In this document: one piece after another, positions 9,488 to 48,200 of the stretch | How positions within the stretch are numbered: the first letter of the stretch is position 1 | Layout: each line of letters opens with the position of its first letter | NCBI GenBank assembly: GCA_964519225.1 | Contig: CAZFJK010000002.1 | Coordinates: forward strand, 1-64,000 | From: an uncultured Methanosarcinales archaeon | GTDB lineage: Archaea; Nanobdellota; Nanobdellia; Woesearchaeales; B54-G15 | Direction of reading: 5' to 3' | Length of the DNA stretch: 64,000 nucleotides | Translations under genes and position numbers: made by a program | Notes under the pieces: model-generated | What the model was told of the DNA's origin: nothing | What the model saw: the letters and a program-made list of their open reading frames with translations, nothing else | Database searches by the model: none

Positions 9488-9897
9488 TTTATTTTTTCTT
9501 TCACGATTTGAGATAATTTTTCAAGAAAACTTTCAAGTTTTGTTTGCATCTCTTCGGAGCTTCTAATAAATCTTTCTTTGTCGTACGAGTTGTATTTATG
9601 CACTACTACGTTTCGCAAGCCATTAGCTTCTTTGAGAAGAGCTGCCTCCTCTTTTGAAATAATTCCTTTAGTGAAGAGAAGCTCGATGTTCGAGTAATCG
9701 TCCTTCGAATTGTTAAACAAATCGGTGCAAAGCATTGATATTATGTCTGTTATAGCTTCGACGCATTCCTGAAAAGCCTTGGCAGAAGCAAAAAGATGCA
9801 GTTCGCTGTGCTCTGCTTGTTCGATCCATTCTGAAAAAGTTTCTAAAGAATGTAAAGCAAAATTTATCTTTTCTTCGTACCTCTTTTTTCTTTCCAT
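9484..9897 (-). CDS. HEPN (DUF86/HepT-like) ribonuclease toxin
   Basis: RNVVVH = Rx4H HEPN catalytic motif followed by KY; adjacent to MNT. Confidence 0.88.
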   Translation of the reverse strand: MERKKRYEEKINFALHSLETFSEWIEQAEHSELHLFASAKAFQECVEAITDIISMLCTDLFNNSKDDYSNIELLFTKGIISKEEAALLKEANGLRNVVVHKYNSYDKERFIRSSEEMQTKLESFLEKLSQIVKEKIK

Positions 9898-9943
9898 AAG
9901 CCTTAGGATTCTTATGGATATAAAAATTTTCTGTAGCTATTAA

Positions 9944-28008: not shown

Positions 28009-29958
28009 ATGTTATTATGGATTATCGGTGTTTCTGTATTGGCTTTGGTTGTGGCTGGTTTGCTTGCTTTTTTTGTGCTAAGGCAAAATGCTGGGACAGA
28101 AAAGATGAAGGAAATAAGCAAGGCAATTCAGCAAGGAGCAGCAGCTTTTCTTTGGAAAGAATACAGCGTTCTTGTTGTTTTTGCAATAGCTGTGTTTTTG
28201 GTTTTGCATTTTCTGATAAGTAAGCAAATAGCAATAGCCTTTATTGTGGGAGCCGTATTTTCTGCTTTAGCAGGAAACATCGGAATGAGGATTGCAACAA
28301 AAGCAAATGCAAGAACTGCAAATGCTGTTAAGAAGAGTTTGAATTCTGGTTTAACGGTTGCTTTCAGAAGCGGTGCTGTAATGGGTTTTTCTGTTGTTGG
28401 TTTGGGCTTACTTGGTGTTGCATTGCTTTATGCTTTGTTTAAAGATCCGAATGTGATTTATGGTTTTGGTTTTGGAGCAAGCAGCATTGCTTTGTTCGCA
28501 AGGGTTGGTGGTGGAATTTATACAAAAGCTGCTGATGTTGGTGCTGATCTTGTCGGCAAGGTTGAAAAGGGAATTCCTGAAGATGACCCGAGAAATCCCG
28601 CTGTTATAGCTGATAACGTCGGCGATAACGTTGGTGATGTTGCGGGAATGGGAGCAGACTTATTTGAAAGTTACGTCGATAGTATAATTGCAGCCATGGT
28701 TTTGGGCATGGCAATTTTTTCCTTAAAAGGGGTTTTTCTGCCCATGGGAATAGCAGCAGCTGGAATAGTTGCTTCGATAACTGGTATGTTTTTTGTTAGA
28801 GCTAAAAGCAAAAAAGGTCTGCATATGGCATTGAACAAAGGAGTTTTTGCAGCTGCAATACTTTCAGCTCTGTTCTCTTATTTTATTGTTCGTTATTTTG
28901 TTGGCGAAATTAATGTTTTTTATGCAATGCTCAGCGGTTTGGTAGCTGGAATTTTGATCGGACTTTCAACAGAATATTACACTTCAGCATACAGAAAGCC
29001 GGCAAGGAGCATAGCAGAGGCAAGCAAAACAGGAGCTGCAACAAATATTATTGCTGGTTTAGCTGTTGGAATGCATAGCACGATTATTCCTGTTTTGGTT
29101 GTAAGTGCAGCATTGATTTTAAGCTATCTGTTTGCCGGATTGTTTGGCGTAGCTATGGCAGCTGCGGGTATGCTTTCAACTTTGGGCATAACTCTTGCTA
29201 CTGATTGTTATGGACCTGTTGCTGATAATGCAGCTGGAATTGCTGAGATGGCAGGCCTTGGTGGAAATGTGAGAAAAAGAGCAGAAGCCCTTGATGCATT
29301 GGGAAATACTACTGCTGCAATAGGTAAAGGTTTTGCAATTGGCAGTGCAGCCTTAACTGCTTTGGCTTTGTTCGCAAGCTTTATGCAGGTTACTGGATTA
29401 AAGGCGATTAGCCTAACGCAGCCGACTGTAGTTGTAGGCTTGTTTATTGGCGGATTAACAACATTCATTTTTTCAGCATTGACCATGAAAGCTGTAGGAA
29501 GAGCCGCATTTAAGATTGTGAATGAAGTTAGGAGACAATTTAAAGAGATTAAGGGATTGATGCGGGGAAGAGCGAAACCTGATTATAAGCGGTGTGTTAG
29601 GATAAGTACAGGAGCAGCATTAAAGGAGATGATTCTTCCGAGCTTGTTAGCGATAGTGATTCCTTTGGCTGTTGGATTTATTTTAGGAGTTGAGGCAGTT
29701 GGCGGCTTGCTTGCAGGCGTAACAGTAACTGGCTTTTTAATGGCAGTGTTCATGGCAAACGCCGGTGGTGCATGGGATAATGCAAAGAAATACATTGAAG
29801 AAGGACATTTCGGCGGTAAAGGAAGTTTTGCTCACAAAGCAGCAGTTGTTGGCGATACAGTCGGAGATCCGTGCAAGGATTGTAGTGGGCCGAGTTTGAA
29901 CATATTGATCAAGTTAATGAGTATTGTGGCTTTGGTGTTTTTACCTTTGTTTTTATAA
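28009..29958 (+). CDS. hppA: Membrane-bound ion-pumping pyrophosphatase, K+-dependent type (probably Na+-PPase)
   Basis: [37 protein letters not shown] (Ala, K+-dependent), [16 protein letters not shown]. Confidence 0.96.
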
Positions 29959-30010
29959 CGGTCGGTTTTCCGACCGATTTTCGCTAAAATTGGTCGGTTT
30001 TCCGACCATT
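29959..30010. repeat. Left repeat: two GGTCGG-TTTT-CCGACC palindromes 32 bp apart
   Basis: Copies at 29959-29976 and 29991-30008. Confidence 0.9.
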
Positions 30011-30014
30011 ATTT

Positions 30015-31226
30015 TTAAAACGTCGCTAAGATAATTTGTTGTCTTGGTTTTAGGATTATAGTTTTTCGTTTGGGAAATTCTGCCAGTTGAGTTTCTGCTT
30101 TTGATTCGCCGCCGATTTCTGTAATTAAAAGCTCTTTACCTTTTTTAATGACATAATCAGGAGATTTCTTTTTACCTTTTATGGTATTAACGTCATATCC
30201 TCTTGAAATGAAACTGAATACCGCCATTTCCTCTCTAATTGCTCCTAAATTTGGTTCTTCGTTTACGGCTTTACAGATACTAGTTCTTAAGCACGGGTGT
30301 CTGAACATTATTTTTGGCTCTCCGCGAATCATTTTTGGTCCTTTACCGTAGGGACGTATAATGCGAATTACCTGCATTTCGTCAAGAATTTTTATTATTT
30401 CATACATGGTAAATTTGCTTATTCCTAAGTTCTTCGAGCATGAATTTATGCTGAATTCTCCGAGAGGAGAGGTTGCAAGCATATAGAGAAAATTTTCCAT
30501 GGCAACAATTTTTTCTCCGCTCATTTTGAGAAAGAAAACAGCATCTTGTCTTATTGATTTTCTAATGGAATTAAAGATTGCAGTAGTTGTAGCTTCATCG
30601 TATTCAAAGTATATTGGTAAACCGTTGTAAAGTGCTGTTTCCCAATTCTGCTTGAGTTCTGGATGCTGAATCAATATTTTTATAGAACTTTCTATTTTTT
30701 TCCATTCTTCTTTAGCTTGCACTTTTTTTCCTGTTTTGAGAAAAACAAATTCTCCTAATCCGAGGAAATCTGCATTGATCTCTTCTTCTCTTCTTTCAGG
30801 TACAAAGACCAAAGGTGCGCTTCCTGAAACAATAAATCTTGCTTTAGGAAACTCATCATATAATGCCTTGACTTCGTTTCTCCAGTTAGGATAAGTATGA
30901 GCTTCGTCTATAAGCAAAATATTGAATCCTCTTTCCAAAGAGGTCTTTCCGATTTGATAAAGCCCGTAGTTTTTGATTAACGGATTATCCATACTAAAAT
31001 ACATTGCTTCCTGTTGCTTTTCTGCGAAGATCTGCAGTAAAGCTGTTGTTTTTCCAGCTCCTCTAAAACCTCTTAGAAGTTTTATTCTTGGCTCCCTTCC
31101 CATAGATTTCATTAACTTTAAAAGAAAATATCTTTTCCTGTATTGTTTTATTTTTTCGATTAATCGCAATGCAATTTCTCTCAATTCTATAAAATCCTCC
31201 GATGGCAGTAGTCTTGTTTTTTTCAT
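30015..31226 (-). CDS. AAA_14/DUF4143 (COG1373-like) ATPase with wHTH and C-terminal PD-(D/E)xK-like domain
   Basis: GFRGAGKTT, LLIDEAH, VSGSA, HTH SKNLGISKFTMYEII, C-terminal PDYVI...EIG. Confidence 0.85.
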   Translation of the reverse strand: MKKTRLLPSEDFIELREIALRLIEKIKQYRKRYFLLKLMKSMGREPRIKLLRGFRGAGKTTALLQIFAEKQQEAMYFSMDNPLIKNYGLYQIGKTSLERGFNILLIDEAHTYPNWRNEVKALYDEFPKARFIVSGSAPLVFVPERREEEINADFLGLGEFVFLKTGKKVQAKEEWKKIESSIKILIQHPELKQNWETALYNGLPIYFEYDEATTTAIFNSIRKSIRQDAVFFLKMSGEKIVAMENFLYMLATSPLGEFSINSCSKNLGISKFTMYEIIKILDEMQVIRIIRPYGKGPKMIRGEPKIMFRHPCLRTSICKAVNEEPNLGAIREEMAVFSFISRGYDVNTIKGKKKSPDYVIKKGKELLITEIGGESKAETQLAEFPKRKTIILKPRQQIILATF

Positions 31227-31266
31227 ATTTTATTTTGAACTAACGCTAGTTTATAAAATTTTCCGA

Positions 31267-31311
31267 TTTTCCGACCAATTTTTGCTATTATTAGTCGGTT
31301 TTCCGACCAAT
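31267..31311. repeat. Right repeat: direct-repeat partner of 29966-30010
   Basis: ttttccgaccaatttttgctattattagtcggttttccgaccaat matches the left copy at 39/45 positions with the same 32-bp spacing. Confidence 0.9.
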
Positions 31312-31368: not shown

Positions 31369-32607
31369 ATGCAGCCAAAATGTTTGAGATGTAAAGGTAG
31401 GGGTTTCTGCGGAAGAATTGTCTGCCCTATGGTTGCAAAAGCATCAGCTCTTTTTAGGATCAGCGAGCAGATTAAGTTAAGAGAAAATTTTTCAGGAGAT
31501 GCGCCAGCACCATTTGTTGGAAGGATTGGATATCCATCTGTAAATGTCGGAGTTCTTGCTTTACAGGAACAGAGAGATGACGCTTGGCTATTTGATGCAC
31601 CAAGATACTGGGCAATGAAAAGCTACAGCATTGATCAGATAATGGTTTATAGAAGCAGTTTAATTAATTCAAGAACGAATTTGCATGTTGGTTCTGTTAA
31701 ATCTGATAAATCAAAGCTTATTGAGCTTGAACAGGAAATTGCTTTAGCTGAAAAGCCCGTTGATGTTGAGGTCTGGCTTAAGAAAAAACCTGTTTTCAGG
31801 CTTAATTTCGATGCTGTGACAATGCCAAGCGGTCCTGTTGCACGTTTGAAGAAAGCAAAATTAATTGAGAATCCCTTTGTTCCTCGAAAAATCGAAAAAG
31901 CATATACTGACTATGATTTAAAAGCAGAAGAGGCTGTATTTTATCTTTATGAAAGCGGTTTTGACGAAAACAAGCTTGCAAAAGCATTAAGCGTTGGTTG
32001 TTTCGGAGTTAAAACACAAAGAAAACTTGTGCCGACGAGATGGAGCATTACAGCTGTTGATGATATTATAGGAAGAAGACTCATTAAGATAGTAAGGGAT
32101 TTTAATTTTCATGACTACGCTTTATTTTTCGATGGATATTTGGGAAACTACTATATGATCTTGTTCTTTCCTTCTGTTTGGCGGTACGAGTTATTTGAGA
32201 TATACGCTCCGAAAGTAAGCTGGAATCAATCAAACCAATTGCAGTATACAACAGACTATGAAGGAAGTTTCGGCAGGAAAACTTATGCTGAAAACTGCGC
32301 TGGTGGTTATTATACCGTTAGACTTGCTGTACTTGAAAAGCTAAGAAGCATGAAGCGACAGGCAAGTGTTTTGGTACTCCGCTTTATAACAGGAGACTAC
32401 TATATTCCTCTTGGTGTTTGGGTAACGAGAGAGGCCGCAAGAAAAAGCTTGCAGGTAAAGAGTATTTGCTTTAATTCGATGGAGTTAATGCTTAAATACG
32501 CTATTGATTTTGCACAGAAAAAATTTGGGATAGATCTAAATAAAATTTTTGAACAGAGCAAATTGCTGAGAGAATTAAAAGAACAAAAAAGAATAGCTGA
32601 TTTTTGA
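31369..32607 (+). CDS. nreA: Nre-family DNA repair protein (PCNA-interacting)
   Basis: CLRCKG..FCG...CP, FVGRIGYP, RKLVPTRWSITAVD, YYIPLGVWVTRE, C-terminal PIP QKRIADF. Confidence 0.93.
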   Translation: MQPKCLRCKGRGFCGRIVCPMVAKASALFRISEQIKLRENFSGDAPAPFVGRIGYPSVNVGVLALQEQRDDAWLFDAPRYWAMKSYSIDQIMVYRSSLINSRTNLHVGSVKSDKSKLIELEQEIALAEKPVDVEVWLKKKPVFRLNFDAVTMPSGPVARLKKAKLIENPFVPRKIEKAYTDYDLKAEEAVFYLYESGFDENKLAKALSVGCFGVKTQRKLVPTRWSITAVDDIIGRRLIKIVRDFNFHDYALFFDGYLGNYYMILFFPSVWRYELFEIYAPKVSWNQSNQLQYTTDYEGSFGRKTYAENCAGGYYTVRLAVLEKLRSMKRQASVLVLRFITGDYYIPLGVWVTREAARKSLQVKSICFNSMELMLKYAIDFAQKKFGIDLNKIFEQSKLLRELKEQKRIADF

Positions 32608-34533: not shown

Positions 34534-35693
34534 AGAATACTTATTATAAGGAAGATATCTAAAATAGAAAGGATTGCTATCAAGATTAAGCTGATGATAG
34601 TTTGAATTTTGGTATTTTTGTATTTACGCATGATTTTTTTGCTATTGCTGAGCTTAAGCAATATCGCTATTACAAAAGGCGTTAAAAAGCCATTTAGGAT
34701 TTGTGAATAATAGATGAATTTTATTGGGTGGATTGGAACAAGAGCAATAAGCGCTCCGAGTAAGAGAGATATGATGATTATAAAATAGAATCCCTTTGCA
34801 AATCTTGGCTTTTTGTCGAGGCCTTCGTGCCAACCGAATAATTCAGAAACAGCATAGGCAGTACTGCCTGCTATTACAGGTAAGGCAAGAAAGCCTGAAA
34901 AGATTATTCCAAGAGAAAATAGCAAATATGCTAAGTTTCCTGCCAATGGCTTTAAAGCAAGGGCTGCATGCGCTGGAGTGTTAACAACTATTTTAGATGA
35001 GAATAATGTTGCAGCAGCTGCTATGATAATGAATCCGGCTACCACATTTGACCAAAGCATTCCGAGAATGGTGTCAAGCTTCATTTCTCTTGCTATGAAT
35101 GTTGTTTTGTGCTCTTCTAATTCGTCTGACGCTTGCCAGAATAACATATAAGGAGCAATGGTTGTTCCTATTATACCAATAGCTACCGGGATAAAGCCTA
35201 AACTAGGAAATGATGGTATGAACCCTTTTAGAATAGAAGGCCAGTCAGGTTTTGTGAGTATTGCAGAGATGATGTAGAACACAAGAAGAAAAGTTAAGCC
35301 TAGTAAGAAGGTTCTTATTGTTTTGTATTTCTTGAAGATGATGAGATAACTTAATAGTAAAGCAATTGGTATAGTGAATATCGTCCAGTTTATCCCTGTC
35401 ATTAAACCAATGACAGAAGCAATTCCTGCAATATCTGCTGAAATGGTTATGAGGTTTGCAAGTGCGAGAATAGCTATTACTAAAATGGCTGTTGTTTTGC
35501 CATCATATTGTTTTATCAAAGACGCCAGTCCTTTTCGTTTGACTAAAGCGATTCTTGCTGCCATTTCCTGAACGACTGCCATAATTGGAGTACATAGCAG
35601 AAGAATCCAGAGAGGAGCATAGCCAAAGAGCGAGCCCGCGATTGTATAAGTGACTATTCCTGCAGGATCGTTATCAGCGCCCCCGGTGATTAA
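34530..35693 (-). CDS. NRAMP-family divalent cation transporter (NRMT/Mg2+-type motifs); 5' end lost in the assembly gap
   Basis: Frame stays open to the gap: ITGGADNDPAGIVTY...VQEMAARI; GTTIAPY; many TM helices. Confidence 0.88.
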   Translation of the reverse strand, partial: LITGGADNDPAGIVTYTIAGSLFGYAPLWILLLCTPIMAVVQEMAARIALVKRKGLASLIKQYDGKTTAILVIAILALANLITISADIAGIASVIGLMTGINWTIFTIPIALLLSYLIIFKKYKTIRTFLLGLTFLLVFYIISAILTKPDWPSILKGFIPSFPSLGFIPVAIGIIGTTIAPYMLFWQASDELEEHKTTFIAREMKLDTILGMLWSNVVAGFIIIAAAATLFSSKIVVNTPAHAALALKPLAGNLAYLLFSLGIIFSGFLALPVIAGSTAYAVSELFGWHEGLDKKPRFAKGFYFIIIISLLLGALIALVPIHPIKFIYYSQILNGFLTPFVIAILLKLSNSKKIMRKYKNTKIQTIISLILIAILSILDIFLIISIL

Positions 35694-35844
35694 NNNNNNN
35701 NNNNNNNNNNNNNNNNNNNNNNNNNNNNNNNNNNNNNNNNNNNNNNNNNNNNNNNNNNNNNNNNNNNNNNNNNNNNNNNNNNNNNNNNNNNNNTCAAGAA
35801 ACTTTTTTAAACTATGTGAGAATAATAGTTTAAGAGGATATTCG

Positions 35845-37977
35845 ATGAAAAAAAGAGGTCAGATTACATTATTCATTGTGCTAGGTATAGTTATATTACT
35901 TGTAATTGGCTTGTTCTTTTTTATCAGAGCAAGAATTGCTGAAAAAAAATTATTGGAAAGACCTGCTATAGAATTACCTAACGAGCTGAAACCTGTTCAG
36001 TTCTTTGCAGAACAATGCCTTGAAAAAGTTGCTGTTGACGGTTTTAAATTGATTGGTGCTCACGGAGGCTATATTAATCCTGATGCTGTCGGAAAGTTTG
36101 ACTATGATGCGCAAACAGAAAGCGATGGTTTGATGCTTTCTCCGAACGGTTTAAAAGTTGTTTATTGGCTTTATAATAAAGCTCTGCCAAACGAAAAGCC
36201 AGAGTTTGCATCTTTAAGGCCAGTGCTGACTAAAAAAGAAGGAAGGAATTCTATTGAAGAGCAAGTTGAACAGTATATTGAGCATCACATTGATGAATGT
36301 TTTGGCGACTTTGAGCAATTTACTGAGAAAGGATTTAAGATTCAGCTAAAAGGAAAACCTGATGCAAAAGTTGTTATTTTACCGCAGAAAGTTATTATTC
36401 ATCTTGACTACGGTATTGAAATCGCGCTTGGTGAAATAAGCAGCAAATTGGATCATTTGTATAGAGAATTGGATATCGATATTAAAGGAATGTATGACAT
36501 GGCAAGATTTATCACGGAACTTGAAACTAATTATACGTTCATCGAAGAAAGAATATTGAGTGGAATTGAGACCTTTTCTGATACAACCGTAGAAAATCTA
36601 CCGCCAATGGACGAAAGTGAATTTGAACTTGCTCCTACTGCTGTTTGGCTGGAGAGTGATGTTAAAGAGGGAATCAAGCAATTAATGATAGGATATGTTC
36701 CGTTATTTAGATTAGAGGCACCAAACAAGTTCGATGTTAATTTCAAAGATGCGACGACTAAAGCATTTTATGATAACTTTTTGATTCCCGTCAAAAGCAA
36801 ATATGCAGTAAGATTCGATTATCTTGGATGGCCTTTTTACTTTGATGTAAATGACGATGCAGGTTTAATAATGCCAGAACATACGGTGATCAGCAGTGCT
36901 GGCCTGGTTTTTGGGATTCAGCGCTATAAAACTCTGTATGATATTTCTGTTCCGATTTTGATTACACTAACTGATAAAAATGCACTTGGGAAAAAAGGAT
37001 ACAGTTTTAGTTTTGCTATTGAGGCAAACATTAGAAACAATGAGCCAATAAAGCCAGAGAAACCGGTTATGCCCAGTTTAGCGTTCTTTGAAGAAAGCTT
37101 GCTTTGCAGAGAAAACCAAAGAAACAGCGGTGAAATCAGCATTGTAGTGAGTGACGCATATAATAGTGAGTTGCTTCCTAATGTAAGTGTTTTTTATTCT
37201 GTTGGAGAAGAGAGCTGTTTCATTGGAAAGACGGACAGCACAGGATTGCTTAAAGCGAGACTTCCTGTTGCTTTTGGCGGTGTACTTAGCTTTGTGAAAG
37301 ATGGCTATCTGACTGGTTATAAATCCTATGATGCTTTGCCAGAACAATCAGATAAGATTAACATTCGGCTTTACAGAATTGTTGAGCTAAATGCGTCGGT
37401 TGAAAAAAGATTGATTAGAAAAATTACAAAGTCATTTCCGTTCATCAGTGGAAAGGCTTTGGGCGGCTGGCAGTATACTGGAGAAAGTACTTCACTTGAT
37501 GATGTTGAAGAAGCTGTTATTACTTTTAGAAGAATTGGCGATGAAGAAGCTTCTTTTACTTCTGTGTTGAGGCTGAGCGGAAAAAATAGAAGTAGTTTGA
37601 AGCTTGTTCCTGGAGCGTACGAGGTTTCTGGAACACTGATCAGGAATGAGAATCTCACTATTCCAAAAGAAAAGAGATGCATTAAGAAAAAAGTTTTAGG
37701 CGTTACTGTTGGTAAAGAATGTTTTGACATTCCTGCTATTAATCTTGAAAAATTCATAGCCGGAGGTGTTTTGTTTAATAACAATACAGGTTATTTAATC
37801 CTGGATCCTGTGCTTGTTTATAATTCAAAAGAAATTAGATTTTATTTGCTATCACCTGCTTTATACATGGTTGAAGAAAAAGAAAGGAAGGTTGAAGACC
37901 TTGAGCAGCTCGGAAAATTCGAGGAATATACCAAACAGTTTTACGATGATTTATTGCCTGTGCCTGTAGCAAGATGA
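35845..37977 (+). CDS. Large (710 aa) class III signal-peptide surface protein, paralogue A1
   Basis: MKKRG/QITLFIVLGIVILL prepilin-type leader; the provided ORF start (35650) lies beyond the N gap. Confidence 0.8.
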   Translation: MKKRGQITLFIVLGIVILLVIGLFFFIRARIAEKKLLERPAIELPNELKPVQFFAEQCLEKVAVDGFKLIGAHGGYINPDAVGKFDYDAQTESDGLMLSPNGLKVVYWLYNKALPNEKPEFASLRPVLTKKEGRNSIEEQVEQYIEHHIDECFGDFEQFTEKGFKIQLKGKPDAKVVILPQKVIIHLDYGIEIALGEISSKLDHLYRELDIDIKGMYDMARFITELETNYTFIEERILSGIETFSDTTVENLPPMDESEFELAPTAVWLESDVKEGIKQLMIGYVPLFRLEAPNKFDVNFKDATTKAFYDNFLIPVKSKYAVRFDYLGWPFYFDVNDDAGLIMPEHTVISSAGLVFGIQRYKTLYDISVPILITLTDKNALGKKGYSFSFAIEANIRNNEPIKPEKPVMPSLAFFEESLLCRENQRNSGEISIVVSDAYNSELLPNVSVFYSVGEESCFIGKTDSTGLLKARLPVAFGGVLSFVKDGYLTGYKSYDALPEQSDKINIRLYRIVELNASVEKRLIRKITKSFPFISGKALGGWQYTGESTSLDDVEEAVITFRRIGDEEASFTSVLRLSGKNRSSLKLVPGAYEVSGTLIRNENLTIPKEKRCIKKKVLGVTVGKECFDIPAINLEKFIAGGVLFNNNTGYLILDPVLVYNSKEIRFYLLSPALYMVEEKERKVEDLEQLGKFEEYTKQFYDDLLPVPVAR

Positions 37978-40900
37978 AGCATAACTGTATTTGGCGGATC
38001 ATTGCAATGAGCTTAATTGGTTTAGTTATTTCAATCAGCTTTTCTATTGCAGGGGTTTATGCTTCTCTTGAAATAACAAGGAGCAGCGGTTCTGGTAATG
38101 TTGACAATTATTTTGATGGTAAAGGAGATAATTGGATTATTGAAGCTGTTGCCGACCTCGGCGGCAGAACCGTTCAGCCAGAAATGATTACGCTTAGATT
38201 TCCTACTGGCGATGAGCATTTTCAAACATGCGAAAAGCAAAACGAGCATTATGTATGCAGATGGGAAAGCGGTTTTATGACGGCTCCTGAAGGAAGCTAT
38301 TCTGTTGATGCTGTTTTGCATGACCTTGTTTTAGCTGTGGATTATAGTGATAAAGCAGAACTGATTGTTGACGGTTCTAAGCCGAGGATTCATTCTCTGC
38401 AGATAACACAAGAGGGCGGTGAAATTAAAATCGGCATTATAGTTTCTGATAGCAAAATTGTAAATGGCGCTGAAACAAGCAGCGGACTTGACAGAATTGA
38501 AGTTTGGAACGGTGATAATCTTGTTGCAAAGGTTGAAAACATCAGCAGCACTGACTATGAAGGCGACTTAATTGCTGATCTGCCTGAAGGAAGTTTTACG
38601 CAAAATTTCCTGATTAAAGTTTATGATAAAATAGGCCATGTTACTGCTGTTGCAAGCGAGCAATTTGCAGTTGATTTTAGCGTTCCTAAAATTTTGACTG
38701 AAAGCTTTAAGATAGGTGAATTAATTGATTGGGCTCCTTCACAGCCAGGAAAATTTGATATTTCTGTTGAGATTATGGAGGATGAAGGTTTGAGTGAAGT
38801 TGTCGGGGACTTTTCTCAGCTCGGCTTAAGCTCAAATGAAGTAGCTGATAAATGCGAAGAGATTGCTTCTATGCATTTTAAGTGCTATTGGTACAATAGA
38901 TTAGTAAGTTTTCCTGGCAATGTCAGGCTTAAGATAAGCGCAACCGATTTGCGCGGAAATGTTGGTATTGCTTATGTTGAAAGGGCTTTTAAGGTTGATC
39001 AAGCAAGGCCTGTTATATTGTTTGTTGGGAGCGAAGGTTTCTATAACGGAACGAATTATGCAAACAAGAATAGATTGACAAAGTTAATTGCAAGAATACA
39101 AGAGGCAGAAAGCGGAATCTCTGCTGAGAATGTTTTATTTGATGCTGATTATGTTGTAAGCGGCGGAGCTGGAACGCACAAGCGCGTGCATGCTGAAAAT
39201 TGCAGTGAGGTTGAATCCGGCGTGTACGAATGCTATCTTGATATTGCCTTACGAAACTATGGAACTGCTTTTCTAGTTAGCGTAAAAGATAATGCAGGGA
39301 ACAGTGTTTCTGTTGATGAACTTGCGACTCTCGGCAGGATCGAACTTAAGCCGGATGAGGATGCTCCTGTTATTGAAAAAGTAGAGATGAAAGCTACCGC
39401 AGGAATGTACGGAACTGAAAAGGAATATTTTGAAAGCAATGATTTCATTAATTTGCGCGTTTATGTGAAGGATAAGATCGGAGTAAGGTGTTATGCTGAT
39501 CTGAGAAATGTTGTGTTAGGAATAAATGAATATGTTCCTGCAGATGATTGCAGTTTACAGCAAGACGGAAGTTGGCTTTGCGAATGGCTTGGCAAAGGTC
39601 CGATAAGGAGCGGATATGCAAAAGCTTATTATGGGATTAGATGCGAAGATTATGTTGGAAATTATGCAGAGAAGGACGGCGTTATAGAAATACTTGGAAA
39701 AAAGATCGAAACGCATCCTGATTTTTGGAAGACTGTAAGCGTTGAAATGATGCCCTCATTTTTGGACAGAAGCATGACAAAAATAATGAGGAGCAGGGTT
39801 TATTTTGATGCTGAAATACATACAGTAAATCCGAACGTTGAATTCTTGGATGCAAGGTTGAAGGAATGTAAAGGGAAAAGCATTCCTGCTTGCGGCGATG
39901 ATTGTTTGATTGATTATTATATTATTAACAATGTTCCTGGAAGCGAGCATTTTTATATTGTTTTAGAGTTCAAACAATTTGATGCTGAAAATATAGATAT
40001 GCTTCAGTATAACTGCACACTTGAAATCTTCTCTAAGTATGGTGCATTTGCTTTGCAGAATCCAGAAGAAGAAGTTATCCAGCTTGATGTTCCTGTTGGT
40101 GAAAGTAGGATTGGAAGGATAGATACTAATTTAGAAAGGAAAATAGAACGGGTTAAGAAAAGGATTGGTGGAATTTGGAGTAGGATCAGTGATCTAAAAA
40201 AATTCATTGAATGGTCAAAATGGGGTTGTAGGGTGCTTTTTATTTTGGATGTTCCAGTGAGAGCAATTATAGATATTGTTAATAGAAAAAGTGAAGGTGC
40301 AAGAGCATTGCCTGGTGGAGCTGCTATTGCATCTTCGATTTGTTTGTTTAGCGAGCAAACAAAAGAAGAACTTTCGTGGGAACCGGTAAAATGGCTTAAA
40401 CCTTTTTGTTATTTTGTGAGTTGCAGAGGTCCTTGGTATGATAAGTATAAAGATGCGATAGCAAAATTCTTAACAGTTGAAGTAGGAAAAGCAACCGGAG
40501 GGATTAGTTTGCCTTTCACACCAGGAGCGCTTGAAAGAGCAATTGGATTAACTCCAGATCCGTACAGAAGCTTGACTATGGCTGTGGCTATGCTTTGTGT
40601 TCCTGCTATTGTTTATAATCTTGACAAGCTCAGGCAGATTGATTGCAGGTATCTTTATTGTTTGAAAAATGAAGTTCCCGCTGGAATTGTTACAGTACGC
40701 GGATGTAAGGAATTAAGAAGATATATGGCATGTAAATATGTTTGGGGAGAAATATTTGAGTTTATTCCGTTTGTGAAGTTGGTTGATAGAGCTCTTGCTC
40801 TGTTACAAAGTTATTTGAAAGATCCTATTGCAGCATTAAGACTGAGTGCAGCACTTTATTGCAAACAATGGTGTGCTGGCTCAAATATTGGAGCTACTGA

Positions 40901-41009
40901 ATGCAGTATTGCTGCATGGACTTTTGCAATACTCGACTTAATCAATGATATTACTATGCTTGAAAAGGAAGCTAAAAGCATTAAATTTGATTATTGTAGT
41001 ACTATATAA
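37974..41009 (+). CDS. Secreted 1011-aa protein: tandem Ig-like domains with Cys pairs plus a Cys-rich helical C-terminal domain (B1)
   Basis: Signal peptide; repeated D..P.I / V.D..G / C..C.W / D..GN units; ATGA overlap with the upstream gene. Confidence 0.75.
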   Translation: MKHNCIWRIIAMSLIGLVISISFSIAGVYASLEITRSSGSGNVDNYFDGKGDNWIIEAVADLGGRTVQPEMITLRFPTGDEHFQTCEKQNEHYVCRWESGFMTAPEGSYSVDAVLHDLVLAVDYSDKAELIVDGSKPRIHSLQITQEGGEIKIGIIVSDSKIVNGAETSSGLDRIEVWNGDNLVAKVENISSTDYEGDLIADLPEGSFTQNFLIKVYDKIGHVTAVASEQFAVDFSVPKILTESFKIGELIDWAPSQPGKFDISVEIMEDEGLSEVVGDFSQLGLSSNEVADKCEEIASMHFKCYWYNRLVSFPGNVRLKISATDLRGNVGIAYVERAFKVDQARPVILFVGSEGFYNGTNYANKNRLTKLIARIQEAESGISAENVLFDADYVVSGGAGTHKRVHAENCSEVESGVYECYLDIALRNYGTAFLVSVKDNAGNSVSVDELATLGRIELKPDEDAPVIEKVEMKATAGMYGTEKEYFESNDFINLRVYVKDKIGVRCYADLRNVVLGINEYVPADDCSLQQDGSWLCEWLGKGPIRSGYAKAYYGIRCEDYVGNYAEKDGVIEILGKKIETHPDFWKTVSVEMMPSFLDRSMTKIMRSRVYFDAEIHTVNPNVEFLDARLKECKGKSIPACGDDCLIDYYIINNVPGSEHFYIVLEFKQFDAENIDMLQYNCTLEIFSKYGAFALQNPEEEVIQLDVPVGESRIGRIDTNLERKIERVKKRIGGIWSRISDLKKFIEWSKWGCRVLFILDVPVRAIIDIVNRKSEGARALPGGAAIASSICLFSEQTKEELSWEPVKWLKPFCYFVSCRGPWYDKYKDAIAKFLTVEVGKATGGISLPFTPGALERAIGLTPDPYRSLTMAVAMLCVPAIVYNLDKLRQIDCRYLYCLKNEVPAGIVTVRGCKELRRYMACKYVWGEIFEFIPFVKLVDRALALLQSYLKDPIAALRLSAALYCKQWCAGSNIGATECSIAAWTFAILDLINDITMLEKEAKSIKFDYCSTI

Positions 41010-41014
41010 TCGTA

Positions 41015-42616
41015 ATGTTAAAAATGAAAAAGAAAAAAACAAAGGCAAAGACAAAAGAAGTGCGGTGGTTCATTTTGATAGGTATAATTGGTTTATCGGT
41101 AATGCTAACTTTAGTTTCGCTTTCTTTTTCTCAGGAAGAAAAAAGTAAAAATAAAGGTGAAAAAGAGCCACCTATTGATTTGACTAGATATGGTTTTACG
41201 AAGAAAGACTTGGAAGATAGTACTTCATACACTTTAGGCGAGCATTCGTTTGTTTATAGGAATGGGGAATGGTATTATAATGGAAAGAAATGTTCTTTAA
41301 CTTATTTTGATACAGAGCCATATCCTCTGTTCGTGCTACCAGATGGATCTGAGGTTGAAATGCCTAAAGAAGGGAAAGTTATCGTTGCTCATCAAGATAA
41401 GACTCTAGAAGAATATAATTACAGAGAAATGAATGGAAAGTATGTTTTAGAATCAAAAATTAAGTATGATAAACATAAAAGTCCAGTGGCTGGGGAAGAG
41501 CACTTTATCATAAATACAGATTTTTCAAAAGAATATGGAAATGCATTTTACTGGGAATGGGAATATAATGAGAAAACTAAGAAAAGAGAAGGTTATATTT
41601 ATTCTGAAAAAGACGGAAATGTAGTTGGTTATGGCGTAGGAGATGAGCGTTATATTGTTTCTCCTGATTCGTATAAGGTTTTAAGGATGAAGGATAAAAA
41701 GGTAATAGAAAAGTACGAGTATAAGAAAGGAACATGGCGCGATGCCAAAGGAAATGAAGTTAAAGATGAAAATGTTTTGAATGTGTTAAAAGATGTTCAC
41801 AGAGAACGATATTACTACAGATGGCTTACTGGTGAGGTTAGTTTAGGAAAAATCTTAGAAACAGCAGGAGAGATAATTCCTGCTGCAGAAAAAGCACTTA
41901 TGCCAGGACTTAGCGGTTGGATTGGAAAGCAATGGAAGAATTTTAAAGCGTGGCGAGAAACAATCGATGAAAAATTTGCAAAAGCCTGTCTTGGTGAAGA
42001 ATATTGGAAAAGCGAGATATGCGATGCGCATTTGGAAAGATTAAATAAGCAAGGATTAGTTATAGAATCTCCAGCAGGAGAGGTTCAGTTTGTTGCGCAT
42101 GTTGAAGCTGAAAGAAGCAAGCCAATGCCAAAGGAATGTCCTTGCAAAGCTGGTGAAGAATGCATAGGAGGTATCTGCTATAAAGATGGACAGCCGTTAG
42201 TGAAATATTTTTATAAAATTACGTACGGTGTAAGGGCGCCGAGCGATATTGCTTTAACGCCTGAGATTGATGAGAGGGGAGCTATCAGCTTTACGTTGGA
42301 ATTAAAAGGTGAAGTAAACAAATATGCTTATGTTGTTGAAGGCACTCAACAACCGTATTATTTCCATCTTAAGCCTGGTGAGGAGAAATCTGCAGTTGGA
42401 GATAAAGCTTTATTGTTTTTTTCAACGCGAAAATATGATGAGGTTTGTATAAAATTTGGAAAGGAACCAAAGAAAAAATGGAGAGAAATAAAGTATCTTT
42501 GCAATAAAATAGCTGAATCGCAGAGGAGCTATGAGAACTGGCGAGAAGCAGCATTATCTGGTGCAGCTCCAGGAGAAGCACCAACATTAGAACCTGAATT
42601 TAATTCAGATATTTAA
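41015..42616 (+). CDS. Membrane-anchored or secreted hypothetical protein (C1)
   Basis: Basic N-terminus plus one TM; Tyr/Lys/Gly-rich middle; Cys-containing C-terminal domain. Alternative ATG at 41024. Confidence 0.72.
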   Translation: MLKMKKKKTKAKTKEVRWFILIGIIGLSVMLTLVSLSFSQEEKSKNKGEKEPPIDLTRYGFTKKDLEDSTSYTLGEHSFVYRNGEWYYNGKKCSLTYFDTEPYPLFVLPDGSEVEMPKEGKVIVAHQDKTLEEYNYREMNGKYVLESKIKYDKHKSPVAGEEHFIINTDFSKEYGNAFYWEWEYNEKTKKREGYIYSEKDGNVVGYGVGDERYIVSPDSYKVLRMKDKKVIEKYEYKKGTWRDAKGNEVKDENVLNVLKDVHRERYYYRWLTGEVSLGKILETAGEIIPAAEKALMPGLSGWIGKQWKNFKAWRETIDEKFAKACLGEEYWKSEICDAHLERLNKQGLVIESPAGEVQFVAHVEAERSKPMPKECPCKAGEECIGGICYKDGQPLVKYFYKITYGVRAPSDIALTPEIDERGAISFTLELKGEVNKYAYVVEGTQQPYYFHLKPGEEKSAVGDKALLFFSTRKYDEVCIKFGKEPKKKWREIKYLCNKIAESQRSYENWREAALSGAAPGEAPTLEPEFNSDI

Positions 42617-42641
42617 AATATAAAAATGATTAAAAATTAAA

Positions 42642-43388
42642 ATGAAACCAAAATTAAAACTCGCTCTTAAAGAAAGCGTTAAGGATAGCTTTTTGATTTT
42701 TTTACTTTTTGATGCAATTTTCATCGGAATAAATGCTGGTTTAATTTATTTATTTTATTTTAAAATAAAAAGTAAATTGGCTTTTTTCTTCTTGGCGCAA
42801 ACAATCCAACCAGAAAATTTAGAGCAGGTGTATGCATTTTCTCAGCAAATTTCTTCTGCTTTGACCTTCGTTGGAGTTGCTTTTGTCGTGTCTCTAATCG
42901 TTTTGATCTTTTCGCATTCACTCACGCGAACCTTGGCTTGGAATTTGGTAATGAGAAAGAAGCTTGGATTTAGAGCTTTGCATTGGTTAAAATTTACAGC
43001 AATCAGCGTTATTCAAGGGCTTGCATTTATTTTGATAGGTTTTCCATTTGCTTTACCGGCTGCAATTGCTAAATCAGCTACTGTTTTGCTTTTAACTATT
43101 TTGTATGGTTTGCTGTTCTACTTCTTTGCTCTTGTTCAGGCAAACCTTTCAAAATCAGGAAAGATAGGAAAATCATTAGCAAACGGATTTCTGCTTTTTG
43201 ACTGGAAGTTCTGCGGAACAAGCTTAGCAGTATTTTTTGGTATTGGTCTTATATCAACCTTGCTTTCAGCACTTAGAGCGTTAAATTCACCAAACGCTTT
43301 TATACTCGTTACGCTTGTTTTAATATGTTTATACATTTCGTGGATCAAATCGTTTGTGTTTGATCAAATAAGGCAGCTAAAAAAATAA
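42642..43388 (+). CDS. Polytopic membrane protein (about 6 TM)
   Basis: Six hydrophobic segments; lies inside the surface operon. Confidence 0.75.
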   Translation: MKPKLKLALKESVKDSFLIFLLFDAIFIGINAGLIYLFYFKIKSKLAFFFLAQTIQPENLEQVYAFSQQISSALTFVGVAFVVSLIVLIFSHSLTRTLAWNLVMRKKLGFRALHWLKFTAISVIQGLAFILIGFPFALPAAIAKSATVLLLTILYGLLFYFFALVQANLSKSGKIGKSLANGFLLFDWKFCGTSLAVFFGIGLISTLLSALRALNSPNAFILVTLVLICLYISWIKSFVFDQIRQLKK

Positions 43389-43395
43389 AATAAAA

Positions 43396-45258
43396 ATGAA
43401 AAAAAGAGGTCAGATTACGTTATTCATTTTAATAGGCCTAATTATTGTAATTGCGTTCTTTTTACTTTTCTATCTGAAGCAAAAAGAGATCATATTCAAG
43501 CCAAAGCCTCCGCTATTGCCGACTGAATTAGCTCCGTTAGATGCTTATGTAAAGGCATGTATCGAAAAGATAAGCGGTGAAGCTGTAGCTATGATCGGAA
43601 CAACAGGAGGATACATCTATTATCCTGATTTTATTAAGAATGATATGAGTTCTTATCTGCTTATTGCTCCTACAGAGCACGGAATGATGCCTTACTGGAG
43701 AACTTTAGAAGCGTTAAGAATTCCTCCTTTACAGTTTATAGCAGAACAAATGGAAAGATATGTTAATGAGAACTTAAAATCGTGCTTGCAGAACTTCACT
43801 CCTTTTACTGCACAGCACAATATTGTTGAAAAATCAGAGCCAAAGGCAGATGTTGAATTCGGCGATGAAGCTACCTTGGTAAAAGTTGATTACGCGCTTT
43901 CGATCAGCGATAAACAAGGAAGAAAGGTTGCTGATATCGAAGAATTTGAAATTGAACTTCCTTACAGAATCAAGACGATACATCGGATAGCAGAAGAACT
44001 GGTGAAAGCAGAGAATACAAACAAATTTATGGAATATACAGTTATTGACTTGATTGCGCTTGATGAGGATATTCCTTTAAATGGCGTAGAGCTGAGCTGC
44101 AAGAAGAAAAGATGGCGAACCAGCGATGTTGAAAACAAGTTGAAAACATTGATTAGAGTGAATCTTCCGAAGATAAGAGTTGAAAGGACGAGCTATCCTG
44201 ATTTTCCTGCAGATCAGCCTTATCTGGCAAAACATTTTGTTTGGGACCCCTTAAAGCTAAATTATAAGGATTTTAGTATTAGTTTTAGTTTTAATGAAGA
44301 ATGGCCATTTTATTTCTATGCAAGGCCGAATAAAGGCGGCTGGCTTGAAAGCGGAATGCAAAGGATTCAACGCTATTTGCCGTTTGTCTGCATACAAAGC
44401 TGGCAATTCAGCTATGATTTACGCTTTCCGATTATGGTTTCGATTCTGGACAGAAAGAATAATTATCTGTTTTCCTTTGCTTTGGAGCTCGGCATTGAAA
44501 GGAATTATCCTTCTGTTGGAAGTGTTGCAAGTGAAAGCTACAGATTCAGAACAGAAGAGCCGACTGAAGCAGAATACTGCTCGCGAAAGCAAACCCTGAT
44601 GACAATATTCAGCTATGATAATGTTTCAAATAGCTTTTTACCGATTGATGATGTTGAACTTGAATTTACTTGTTTGAAATATACCTGCTCATTAGGTAAA
44701 ACGTCATACGCAAGTGGAGGGGCTGTAGCATTGCTAAAAACATATGTTCCGAAATGTACATACGGGATTCTGAAAGCAAGAAAAGAAGGATATAAAGAGG
44801 GTACTGCCTTTATTTCAACTGAAGTGCCCGGAGAAGTTAGTGTTTATTTAACGCCGATAAAAAAGGTTAAGGTTAAGGTTGTTAAGCACAGGTATGATTT
44901 TGATTCTGGAATGCTCAGTCCTGATGCAGAAGAATTAGGCAGGGATGAGATAGCAAGTATTAATGTAAAAAGAAAAGATCATGAGGCTTATACTGTTTAT
45001 CCTGCAGAATTTAATGAGATTGAATTACTTGCTGAAGATGATTTTACCTATAATATTACCATTCATCTTACTTTAGAGGGTTTGGTGATTGGTGGTTTGC
45101 AAAAGACGATCGAGCTTGAGCGGGATGAACTCAGTCTTGCAAATGAGATTGTTTTCCATGTTGCGTATGCTGATGTAAAAAATGAGGATGATATGTTAAA
45201 GTTAATGAGCTTACTGCCTGAAATATCGGAATCAGTACCTTTGCCTGAATTAAGATGA
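43396..45258 (+). CDS. Large (620 aa) class III signal-peptide surface protein, paralogue A2
   Basis: MKKRG/QITLFILIGLII; shares LP.EL.P, C.EK, IG..GGYI, WPFYF, YD...PI, FSFA.E..I..N.P with 35845-37977. Confidence 0.82.
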   Translation: MKKRGQITLFILIGLIIVIAFFLLFYLKQKEIIFKPKPPLLPTELAPLDAYVKACIEKISGEAVAMIGTTGGYIYYPDFIKNDMSSYLLIAPTEHGMMPYWRTLEALRIPPLQFIAEQMERYVNENLKSCLQNFTPFTAQHNIVEKSEPKADVEFGDEATLVKVDYALSISDKQGRKVADIEEFEIELPYRIKTIHRIAEELVKAENTNKFMEYTVIDLIALDEDIPLNGVELSCKKKRWRTSDVENKLKTLIRVNLPKIRVERTSYPDFPADQPYLAKHFVWDPLKLNYKDFSISFSFNEEWPFYFYARPNKGGWLESGMQRIQRYLPFVCIQSWQFSYDLRFPIMVSILDRKNNYLFSFALELGIERNYPSVGSVASESYRFRTEEPTEAEYCSRKQTLMTIFSYDNVSNSFLPIDDVELEFTCLKYTCSLGKTSYASGGAVALLKTYVPKCTYGILKARKEGYKEGTAFISTEVPGEVSVYLTPIKKVKVKVVKHRYDFDSGMLSPDAEELGRDEIASINVKRKDHEAYTVYPAEFNEIELLAEDDFTYNITIHLTLEGLVIGGLQKTIELERDELSLANEIVFHVAYADVKNEDDMLKLMSLLPEISESVPLPELR

Positions 45259-48200
45259 ATAAAAGAAAGAAAAAACTGGTTTGTGCATGGATTTTAGTAT
45301 TGATTATTTGTATGCCGTTTGGTTTTGCTCAGGTAAAGACGCAGCTAACATTAGAGTTGAATGTTCCTGCTTATGTTAATGAGCGGTACATTGATGTTAC
45401 AGGCAGCACAGAGCAAAATGCTGTTGTTGAACTTTGGCTGAACGGAAAGCTCGCAAGAAAAACTACATTTCCGGATGGAAATATTATATTTTACGATGTT
45501 GCACTCGAGCCGAATACTGCAAATGTTATTGTTGTTAAATCATTTGCTCTTGGGTTAAGTGCGGAAAAACAGGTTACTGTTTTTTGTGATCTGGTAAAGC
45601 CTGCTCTAACGCTTGCAGAACTACCTTTGGTAACGAAAGAGCAAAAGGTAACTGTTTCTGGAAATGTCTCTGAAAGTGCAGATATTGAGATTTTTTTAGG
45701 CGGAAACAGTGTTTTTAAAGCAGAGAACGTTCAATCGTTTTCAAAGGATGTTGTGCTTGAAGAAGGTGAAAATACTTTACTGATTACTGCTGTAGATAAA
45801 GCAGGAAACAAAGAAGAGATTTCCCATACTGTAGTTAAAGATACAAAGCCGCCAAAGATAGAAAAGCTTTATCCTGAAAGCGGTGCTTTTTACTATGAAG
45901 GTAAGGCTATTGATGATGTAAAAGGAAAAACAGAACCATTTGCTAGCGTTAAGCTTTATGTTATCTTTACTGAAGACGGTAAAGAAAAAAGAGAACTCGT
46001 GGCCGAAACAAAAGCAGATGTTGAAGGCAATTTCAAATTTGAAGATGTGAACTTTCAGAATCCAAAAAGAGGAATAAGCTTCTCTATCTGGGAATTCCGC
46101 GTTGGCGTTGGTGGAGAAGCAGGTATTGAGGAAGTAGCACCCGGAGAGGAAACAGAGGAATGGTATGAGCAGAAAGTAATTAGCGCAAGGTTTGTTGTTG
46201 TTGCCGAAGATGCTGTAAAACATAGGACTGAAAAACAATTTACTATCGGCATTGGAACGTGCTGGAGTGGAGCATTCAAGTTTGACATTGATGTTTTGCC
46301 AGAATATGTTTTACCTACCCTGCTCAGTCCTGAAAGATTGGCCGAAGGAACAGAAAGAATAAGCTTTGTAATGAATGTGAGCTATGTTGGTGGAAAGCCT
46401 AAAGGCGATTGGCAGATTGTTGATGTAAGAATTGATCATGCCTGCGGCAGAAGTCTTGCTCAGCTTGCAAAGGAATATGAAGACGATCCGCGATACGAAA
46501 TTGCTTGTGAAATGCTGAAGAGGGTTCCGCATCCGCATAAGGACAGCAATCGGGCTAAAACCCTTTGGTATGTTGAATTCAAGAATATGTATTCTAAAGA
46601 ATTTGAGGAGCTGGTAAATCTTAAATGGGACGAGCTGAAAAAGAAATTAAGGTTTAATCAATTGATCTTTCCGCTTAGGGTTACTATAGCATATAGGGAA
46701 AAGGAAGAAAAGGTTGTTGATGGCAAGCTGAGAAAGGTTTTTGGTCCTGTGAAATATCAAACAAAATGTATTTCTGTTGCTTATTTTGTTGATTTTCCTG
46801 TTGATCCAAGAGATGTGTGGCCTGACTGGTTGATAAATGACGGCATAAAATTTGCAAACAAAACTGTAAGCGCAATAAACAAAATAATGCCATATGTCGA
46901 TAAAACAGTTATGAGTGTTGGTGCTGCATGCATAGGAAGCATGCTCGGAAGGTTTGCTGTGAAAGTAATAAGAAAAGCTGTTTGTGCATGGGAAAGCTGG
47001 GCTGGAAGAGTTATGCAAAGCAAAGAAAGACAGTGTCCTAGTGCAGCAAAACGAATGGAATTAGACGATACCGCATTAAAAACACAATGTCCGCTCTGTG
47101 CAAATTGGTGGAATATTGAAAGCAAACTGTATGTTCCGTACAGGCTTACCTGCGATAGGATTTTCTGTCATAGGGCTCCTGCTGGCTGGACTGCATTCCC
47201 GACTCCAGCTAGCGAAATAGCAATGGCAAAAGCAAGCCAGCTTTTCTGCGGCCTTGAAGAAAAGTTAGGAATAACGCCTTTGAGAAAATTAAAATGGGAT
47301 GCTGTGGAGGAAGAGGTATCGCTTACTCTGAAGAACCTTACACCTATAGGAGGTAAGGGACCAGAATATGTGTATGAATATAAGTTTGCATATTATGCTC
47401 CTGATCCCGAAAAGAAAAATAAATTAGTGAGAATTGCGCAAAGAAGTGACGTAATTACCGATGCACCTGAAACGCTTACGGTTGAAAAAATAGGCGATAC
47501 TTATGGAACTGCCATTGATAGAAAATGTGATGAGATGTGTAAGGATTTCTTTGGAAAGGATTTTGAAGGGCGATGTGCAGAAGAAAAAAGCTGTGCCGAA
47601 GCAGGTAATTATCCTATAGGATATTCTAGAGATTGTTTTCCGAAACAGAAAAGCGTATGTTGTTGCGAATTGCCAGAAAAAGAGCGTGCAAAAAAAGAAG
47701 CGGAGAAAAAGAAACTTTGTCCTGCTAATAAGCTGTGGAATTACAGGACGCAGCAGCTTTACAGGGAAACAAAAGGAAAGTTCGGCTGCAAGTATCCAGA
47801 TGATAGGTATTATCGTGGGCGCGATATATATGCCTGTGCAGGAATGGATCATCTTTTTGATTATTTAGGATTACATCCAACAAAGGCTCCTATTTTAGAT
47901 CCAAAAGACCATATGGTTGCCGTGCAATGTGTATGCTTAACAGGAATAAGGGCGCGACTTGTTCTGCTGAGAAATATAATGACTGGTTTAATGAATTGTT
48001 TAGAGCAAGTGAAAACAACAGGAAAAGCTAATGCAGGTGTATGCAAAGAATTGTTTGCAATGTATTTCTGCGATCTTCTGTATCAGGTCTTTGTTGCATT
48101 TGAAAAGGGATGCATAACTCTGCCTTTCGGAGTTAAGGCTAGAGTTTTGCCCGGAGTTGGAAAAGTAGAATACAATGTTGAAGGAGAGTTTGCTGAGCTT

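Follow-up and report, generated by a model that had tools for sequence, protein, structure and literature searches.

Single genes that join an AAA_14 ATPase domain to a DUF4143 domain (COG1373) are classed as the candidate defence system PDC-S01. PDC-S01 has been described as an ATPase fused to a PD-(D/E)XK domain, very abundant, enriched in Archaea and among the most frequent candidate defence genes, with its mechanism, ligand and DNA target given as unknown and validation of a defence role as pending (PMC12988326). One representative placed in E. coli gave no reported protection against T7, T5 or T4 (10.1101/2024.09.26.614923). Flanking cognate repeats or operators are not mentioned for this family in the main texts of the literature searched. 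Here we describe a gene encoding a protein that matches the PADLOC models of PDC-S01 (7e-21), located in a 64-kb stretch of DNA (hereafter the window; contig CAZFJK010000002.1, positions 1 to 64,000) from an uncultured archaeon of the order Woesearchaeales. The gene stands between two near-identical, directly repeated modules, each made of two related dyads, which we read as putative cognate binding sites of the encoded protein.

Several described systems place a gene beside or between sites with dyad symmetry. In phage lambda, with CI and the operators OL and OR, and at the auxiliary operators of lac and gal, oligomers bridge multi-dyad operators and loop the DNA, and the promoter-proximal site autoregulates. 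The locus described here is similar in that a putative regulator gene is bracketed by multi-dyad operator-like modules, the dyads abut the gene's own core promoter, the multiple sites are phased, and 18 of 30 units of this kind have a second site set at a distance of 1204-1332 bp. It differs in that the putative regulator is an AAA+ ATPase-nuclease, in that the operator sets are near-identical direct repeats which co-evolve, and in that the predicted loop holds the gene itself only. Archaeal Orc1/Cdc6 proteins and their origin recognition boxes (ORBs) share the AAA+/winged-helix fold and the dyad-containing repeats beside the gene of the binder. The ORBs, however, are inverted around an AT-rich unwinding element beside the gene, whereas here direct repeats bracket the coding region and the protein carries an extra nuclease-like domain. 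Integron attC cassettes, Xer-dependent pdif modules and IMEX likewise place single genes between dyad-symmetric sites, may form tandem arrays and lack a recombinase within the cassette. Their sites are read by a host or integron recombinase and are alike for all cassettes in a host, while here the site is private to each paralogue, tracks the gene phylogeny and, in one of its copies, adjoins the promoter as a putative operator. The compact unit and the hairpin-capable palindromes, in the same orientation at both ends and without terminal inverted repeats, also recall the IS200/IS605 elements, but Pfam finds no HUH (Y1) transposase or TnpB here, the direct-repeat ends are long and near-identical, and the copy number is low.

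Paired dyad modules at the ends of AAA_14/DUF4143 genes

In the window, positions 29966-30010 and 31267-31311 are identical at 39 of 45 positions in direct orientation, which reproduces the claim of an earlier note on this DNA that a 45-bp direct repeat lies at both ends of the ATPase gene; a repeat search extends the match to 29963-30008 and 31264-31309 (87%). The coordinates also agree with the positions given earlier for the two copies. The left copy begins 2 nt past the stop codon of the membrane pyrophosphatase gene hppA (29958) and ends 4-7 nt before the stop codon of the ATPase gene (30015-30017), and the right copy adjoins a TATA-like element on the minus strand, which, judging from general knowledge of archaeal promoters, we take to be the promoter element of the gene. 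The sequence GTCGGTTTTCCGAC occurs exactly at 29961, 29993 and 31294, and no further site exists in the window even when one mismatch is allowed; these three matches compare with 0.06 expected, and none of 100 shuffles reaches three. The downstream (3') module is a direct-repeat copy of the upstream (5') one, and its two dyads begin 32 bp apart, the spacer between them holding an AT-rich dyad. In the upstream module the promoter-proximal dyad is a variant, GGTCGGAAAATCGGAAA on the gene strand (31260-31277), 32 bp from the dyad at 31294 and abutting the position of the TATA box and the transcription factor B recognition element (BRE). The earlier note had described this unit as degenerate. It does differ from the exact dyads, but it is not decayed, as 18 of its 18 positions are identical in the orthologue at the locus L001, and it resembles the promoter-proximal site of another homologous locus, L017.

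The same layout recurs in relatives of the gene. The protein clade has about 100 clusters, at 43-55% identity, and a further one at 91%; their source names are Woesearchaeota, Micrarchaeota, Diapherotrites and similar. A genome scan with a 35-sequence alignment yielded 36 loci. In each unit 250 nt around the gene start were compared with 240 nt around the stop. Seven loci were dropped from this test, as a contig end cuts the 3' end (L014, L022, L033) or the 5' end (L015, L032), the open reading frame (ORF) is split (L035) or only a fragment is present (L036), leaving 30 testable units (29 loci and the window). A direct repeat flanks the gene at both ends in 18 of the 30 (41-67 nt, 85-100% identity, scores 31-59), with a repeat period of 1204-1332 bp and a downstream copy whose start lies between 34 nt before the end of the stop codon and 30 nt beyond it; one further unit, L028, has a weak flanking repeat (23/25). 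Scores for the inverted orientation never exceed 19 in the 30 units, and mismatched pairs, in which the upstream flank of one locus is compared with the downstream flank of another (n = 870), give a mean of 10.5, a 99th percentile of 28 and a maximum of 41. When 55 genes of the window were treated in the same manner, the ATPase gene alone scored high (31; next best 14.5). A blind control of 181 other genes of at least 150 aa at the same loci returned two that reach the threshold, the stronger of which (L031c) is itself a family member. The other, the sole gene to pass without being identified as an AAA_14/DUF4143 member, is an unannotated 185-aa ORF on L024 (4379-4936, no Pfam match) inside a 45-nt direct repeat (4189-5084, 39/45).

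Among nine distant AAA_14/DUF4143 paralogues encoded in the flanks of these loci, five have a direct repeat at both gene ends (L002b 52/52, L004b 46/47, L014a 44/52, L031b 36/37 and L031c 60/61). The proposal that COG1373 homologues might carry cognate repeats at their ends is thus borne out in 18 of 30 clade units and five of nine distant paralogues, each with a dyad of its own. An assembly artefact, a possibility raised at the outset, is excluded because the layout is found in 18 independent loci of different assemblies. Some units show other arrangements: L030 has no downstream module, and ahead of its gene two full ones, with four dyads, are arranged in tandem (9829-9958); on an Aliarcobacter plasmid (L038) the gene of a distant bacterial homologue is bracketed by long inverted rather than direct repeats (1828-2245 and 3831-4247; 204 nt at 96%, plus 89 and 74 nt). 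Upstream of a homologue with 29% identity on a Parabacteroides plasmid (L037, about 2300-2370), two TTTCT-N5-AGAAA dyads can be seen by eye, 32 bp apart, which hints that the upstream double dyad may be older than the DPANN clade.

The dyads differ in sequence between lineages (GTCGG..CCGAC, GGTCG..CGACC, TTTCCC..GGGAAA, TTTCCG..CGGAAA, TTGGAC..GTCCAA and others), and adjacent paralogues of one genome carry different modules (L002, L004, L014 and the metagenome-assembled genome (MAG) UBA10214). The dyad class follows the protein tree, requiring 3-4 changes as compared with about 11 in shuffled data, and none of 500 shuffles is as low. The spacing is constant: of 34 units tested, an internal repeat of 13/16 or better is present in 17, and 14 of the 17 have their dyads exactly 32 bp apart, whereas 11 of 185 control segments reach the same internal repeat and none of the 11 does so at 32 bp. 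In the window and in most homologous loci, the proximal dyad directly adjoins an A/T-rich TATA-like motif about 25 nt before the ATG. Exact GTCGG-N4-CCGAC sites, searched in 477 kb (37 sequences), are found within 200 nt of the ends of family genes in 11 of 12 cases. The idea that the palindrome is a dispersed repeat unrelated to ATPase genes, which would have been at odds with the earlier note, is not supported by this distribution, and a dispersed repeat of the repetitive extragenic palindrome or miniature inverted-repeat transposable element type can be rejected for the sequence examined, where all three exact dyads in 64 kb are at the ATPase gene. Solitary module copies up to 10 kb on either side of the loci were not found, except for one at the contig end of L017 (20664-20711), a window-like GTCGG module on the opposite strand that lies at most 50 nt from the contig end and far from the ATPase gene. 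Because cognate repeats recur at genes of the family, the repeat is not dispersed and an artefact is excluded, the repeats belong to the gene.

Both copies are conserved between species. The locus L001, from a Woesearchaeota MAG, encodes a protein with 91% identity to that of the window and has the same nre-ATPase-hppA synteny with a module at both ends. The upstream dyads are identical at 16/16 and 18/18 positions (34/34) and the downstream dyads at 15/16 and 16/16, so that 65 of 66 dyad positions are kept, compared with 62-78% at spacer and synonymous sites. The module spacers agree at 10/16 (upstream) and 12/16 positions, the interval from the TATA box to the ATG at 22/33 and the third codon positions at 316/404. 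Divergence of spacers and third codon positions around conserved dyads indicates that both module copies are under constraint. The two copies within one genome also co-evolve: informative sites favour the pairing of copies within a genome by 3 to 2 for the window and L001, and by 8 to 0 for L003 and L007, five of these eight stemming from one indel. The repeat-bearing layout is also retained by clades that diverged deeply, with protein identities of 45-55%.

The encoded ATPase and the predicted role of the modules

The protein consists of an AAA+ ATPase, a helical lid, a winged helix and a C-terminal PD-(D/E)XK-like domain. The AAA_14 P-loop domain (PF13173) scores 68 bits against a cut-off of 27, and the match to DUF4143 (PF13635) is only just above threshold, as it reaches 29.1 bits against a cut-off of 28.1; the PADLOC model PDLC04787 of PDC-S01 aligns across residues 28-370 (7.1e-21). 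Invariant in the 35-sequence alignment are G56, K59, T60, D107 and E108 in the Walker A and B region, as well as E332, D357, E370, K376 and Q380. The AlphaFold (AF2) model of the 403-aa protein has a predicted local distance difference test (pLDDT) score of 91.4, and a Foldseek search with the full model returns the archaeal Walker-type ATPases 2fna and 2qen, Orc1/Cdc6 in complex with origin DNA, and STAND NTPases; the matches to Orc1/Cdc6 (2qby, 2v1u) are at about 1e-6 to 1e-5, with low TM-scores of 0.24-0.30. When the C-terminal 114 aa were modelled separately (pLDDT 72.5), the top Foldseek matches were all of the PD-(D/E)XK fold (EndA, Hjc/Hje, EcoRV, VRR-NUC, I-Ssp6803I), weak matches with E-values of at least 0.004 and TM-scores of 0.41-0.49. 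DUF4143 has been listed as a PD-(D/E)XK family of unknown function (PMC3424549). By the modelled fold of its C-terminal domain, the protein may be regarded as a putative nuclease. A sequence search of the PDB gave nothing significant, the best match (0.0017) being to the P-loop region of PtuA, and homologues in a phage collection were limited to one partial match.

Our preferred reading, held with modest confidence, is that the modules are putative cognate binding sites of the encoded ATPase, the upstream one being an autoregulatory operator and the downstream one a selected second site for bridging or insulation. The 46-bp repeats would be recognised by the protein encoded between them, and the two dyads of each module, lying three turns (32 bp) apart on the same face of the helix, would suit two winged-helix dimers. 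The upstream module extends over the BRE/TATA position in the promoter of the gene itself and would be autoregulatory, most likely repressing, and the downstream module, right after the stop codon, would serve as the second site. ATP-dependent oligomerisation of an Orc1/Cdc6- or STAND-like ATPase may then bridge the protein bound at both modules. Such bridging would loop out the 1.3-kb gene, insulating it against read-through from tightly packed neighbours, and would keep a nuclease that could be harmful tethered to its own locus. The gene, its promoter and the two modules would be inherited together as one compact cassette, with the modules kept alike by gene conversion or because both track the same protein. 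The earlier note had offered two possibilities, that the protein binds both ends or that the gene is a mobile cassette; binding at both ends fits the dyad symmetry, the 32-bp phasing, the promoter overlap and the conservation across species, whereas mobility has circumstantial evidence only.

Several observations weigh against the preferred reading. The covariation of dyad and clade could come from co-inheritance alone. A concentration of the specificity positions in the winged helix was considered and is rejected, as positions that discriminate GTCG-type from TTTCC-type units occupy 4 of 51 columns there and 15 of 199 in residues 1-205 (the N-terminal and AAA+ part); the only clean switch between the two types is at residues 272/273, where the predicted recognition helix begins. 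The downstream copy is lacking in 11 of the 30 units, and flanking repeats are absent from four of the nine distant paralogues (L023a, L023b, L036b, L012b) and from all four bacterial plasmid homologues (22-29% identity), from which it follows that the downstream copy is dispensable. On the plus strand the downstream module also resembles a terminator of hppA. In addition, the duplicated segment takes in the TATA box in L017 and L031b and the 3' coding end in L002, L004, L013 and L020, which points to an origin by duplication or recombination and is not predicted by selection for a binding site alone.

Genomic context and alternative explanations

Repeat-bearing units stand between unrelated genes, and the edges of their modules are often 0-25 nt from the ends of neighbouring genes. 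The called downstream neighbour is convergent in eight of these units, the window included, and has the same direction in ten. A role of the downstream module as promoter of the next gene was tried as an explanation and is rejected in general, since this neighbour is convergent in the eight units. In L002, L004, L014 and L031, units that differ in their modules are direct neighbours. Three AAA_14/DUF4143 units, each with its own distinct direct repeat, are found within 8 kb on L031 (3944-11939), where units 2 and 3 are separated by an nre homologue (9160-10428); in the window and in L001, too, the unit has nre as a neighbour. The upstream block of L007 is common to L022 and its downstream block to L003, the latter two being contigs of UBA10214. 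This MAG has an extra unit X ahead of a shared unit Y, while the orthologous site of L007 has one unit only. On L003 (1-381), the final 114 nt of the upstream gene are followed by a single copy of module X, which differs at one base, and immediately by unit Y, so that the ATPase-X gene, present on contig L022 (shared stretch 9800-9957), is skipped; at the site of module X, L007 has a degenerate half-module only (9860-9960). Either the single-module site of L003 is a genuine variant or the assembler took a path through a 53-nt repeat. Elsewhere, five protein-search clusters (P0007, P0017, P0045, P0053, P0057) have a longest contig of only 1257-1282 nt, approximately the size expected for a repeat-bounded assembly-graph segment or a circle of one period.

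One explanation for this context is that the unit is a mobile single-gene cassette. The direct repeats would then be ends resembling attachment (att) sites or long terminal repeats, and a circle of about 1.3 kb with one module would be excised and re-inserted near genes or other units, either by host recombination or by the unit's own ATPase-nuclease, which would be compatible with DNA binding as proposed above. The unrelated contexts with closely apposed gene ends, the tandem or adjacent arrays of different units (including UBA10214), and the single unit of L007 as compared with two in UBA10214, together with the single-module X join on L003, are consistent with such movement. So are the repeats that are 100% identical in five units (L005, L011, L020, L031, L002b), the duplicated segments that can take in a TATA box or a gene 3' end, the position of the window's Woesearchaeota protein among those of Micrarchaeota, with some clade members from bacterial-labelled MAGs, the contig ends inside a unit or within about 150 nt of one in 8 of 36 loci, and the likeness of the C-terminal domain to Hjc-type junction resolvases. 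Yet a Pfam domain search of the 57 ORFs of at least 80 aa in the window gives no recombinase or transposase domain, in line with the earlier note, nor any tyrosine or serine integrase; Pfam and NCBIfam assign the ATPase gene product AAA_14, DUF4143 and a weak nSTAND match only, and no transposase. The repeats are moreover direct and not inverted, identical units in different contexts were not seen in the 37 sequences (477 kb), and each genome among the loci examined has only 1-3 clade copies. L001 represents an occupied hppA-nre site in which the unit is stably syntenic with that of the window, and differences specific to the upstream and downstream copies are kept in both. L003 and L007 keep the unit at the same site with homogenised repeats, which fits conversion in situ, and the single-module contig could reflect the assembler path just mentioned. 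Target-site duplications are not apparent at the window junctions, although no systematic search was made. Mobility of the cassette is possible on this circumstantial evidence, and as an account of the repeats we consider it doubtful. An elaboration, in which the protein, through its Orc1/Cdc6-like ATPase, winged-helix and Hjc-like nuclease domains, recognises and synapses its own end modules and promotes excision, re-insertion or conversion of a selfish single-gene cassette, thereby acting as a new type of recombinase, appears unlikely.

Other explanations would dispense with recognition by the ATPase altogether. If the modules were generic hairpins that act as terminators or insulators, they would stop the transcription of hppA and of the ATPase gene, and the upstream copy would block read-through. 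The plus strand of the downstream module has two terminator-like sites of a hairpin with a T-run right after the hppA stop codon, and RNA from either strand of this module is predicted to fold strongly (-29 kcal/mol, z -5.3 to -6.0); among the 16 repeat-bearing units for which an upstream neighbour is called, seven have that gene pointing into the module from a distance of 0-25 nt. Rfam returns two sub-threshold matches and no known RNA family. The upstream module, however, folds weakly (z -2.3 and -3.0) and, because the neighbouring gene is divergent in the window and in L001, has nothing to terminate there, yet its dyads are conserved at 34 of 34 positions. Archaeal termination relies mainly on oligo-T, and hairpins would require neither identical half-sites in the two dyads nor exact 32-bp phasing nor restriction to a single gene family, which makes this explanation improbable. 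Even less credible is that the downstream copy is a functionless relic of a tandem duplication or insertion. Its absence from 11 of 30 units and the inclusion of non-site sequence such as the TATA box in some copies would be expected of a relic, but the downstream dyads persist at 15/16 and 16/16 positions between species while the spacer and synonymous sites diverge, and the architecture is kept across clades at 45-55% protein identity.

The surrounding locus and significance for the gene family

The features of the locus are collected in Table 1, and the gene identities proposed earlier for hppA, the AAA_14/DUF4143 ATPase and nre all hold in Pfam matches. The convergent neighbour hppA ends 2 nt from the downstream module, and the divergent neighbour nre is separated from the upstream module by 60 nt, an arrangement shared by L001. 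The window is otherwise an ordinary archaeal chromosome (TIP49, NFACT, FtsZ, DNA ligase and others). A second archaeal ATPase gene (55977-57389, minus strand; ATPase_2 and DUF234, weak AAA_14) has no flanking direct repeat (score 11.5); its product belongs to the solved family that is structurally closest to the ATPase described here. Adjoining genes for a nucleotidyltransferase (NTP_transf_2/Polbeta) and a HepT-like RNase (9074-9897, minus strand) make up the usual MNT-HepT toxin-antitoxin pair. Six large ORFs in a row on the plus strand (35650-49706; 775, 1011, 533, 248, 620 and 1483 aa) have no Pfam match except for a weak Glucodextran_B match in the last one.

Table 1. Coordinates of the ATPase unit and its adjacent genes in the 64-kb window
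Feature	Position	Strand	Remarks
hppA, membrane pyrophosphatase	28009..29958	+	Pfam H_PPase 8.3e-276; NCBIfam NF001960 above cut-off
Downstream (3') module	29960..30007	-	Two exact 16-bp dyads GGTCGG-N4-CCGACC, 29960-29975 and 29992-30007
AAA_14/DUF4143 ATPase gene, 403 aa	30015..31226	-	Pfam AAA_14 9.9e-19, DUF4143 9.4e-7
TATA-like box of ATPase gene	31250..31258	-	About 25 nt upstream of ATG at 31226; leaderless-type geometry
Upstream (5') module	31260..31308	-	Variant proximal dyad 31260-31277 and distal dyad 31293-31308, 32 bp apart
nre, NreA-like DNA repair protein	31369..32607	+	Pfam Nre_N 5e-84, Nre_C 3e-30

The analysis supplies the PDC-S01 family with predicted cognate DNA sites that are specific to each paralogue, have a fixed geometry and bear evidence of selection. 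With such sites, direct tests of binding, regulation, looping and cleavage in vitro become feasible, also for DPANN archaea that have not been cultivated, and heterologous defence assays in which the ORF is cloned without its flanking modules may miss the regulation. If the modules are regulatory, the locus would show, in compact archaeal form, how a gene can be insulated by an operator set on either side; if the cassette is mobile, it would represent new recombination machinery. The unlikely case of a selfish cassette driven by its own protein would, if true, explain the re-homogenised direct-repeat ends, the arrays with private specificities and the spread across DPANN phyla, and some of what is counted under the abundant defence candidate PDC-S01 would have to be seen as mobile or addictive DNA, in place of or in addition to a form of immunity. 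The predicted sites offer a first handle on the workings of this very common and uncharacterised AAA_14/DUF4143 gene family.

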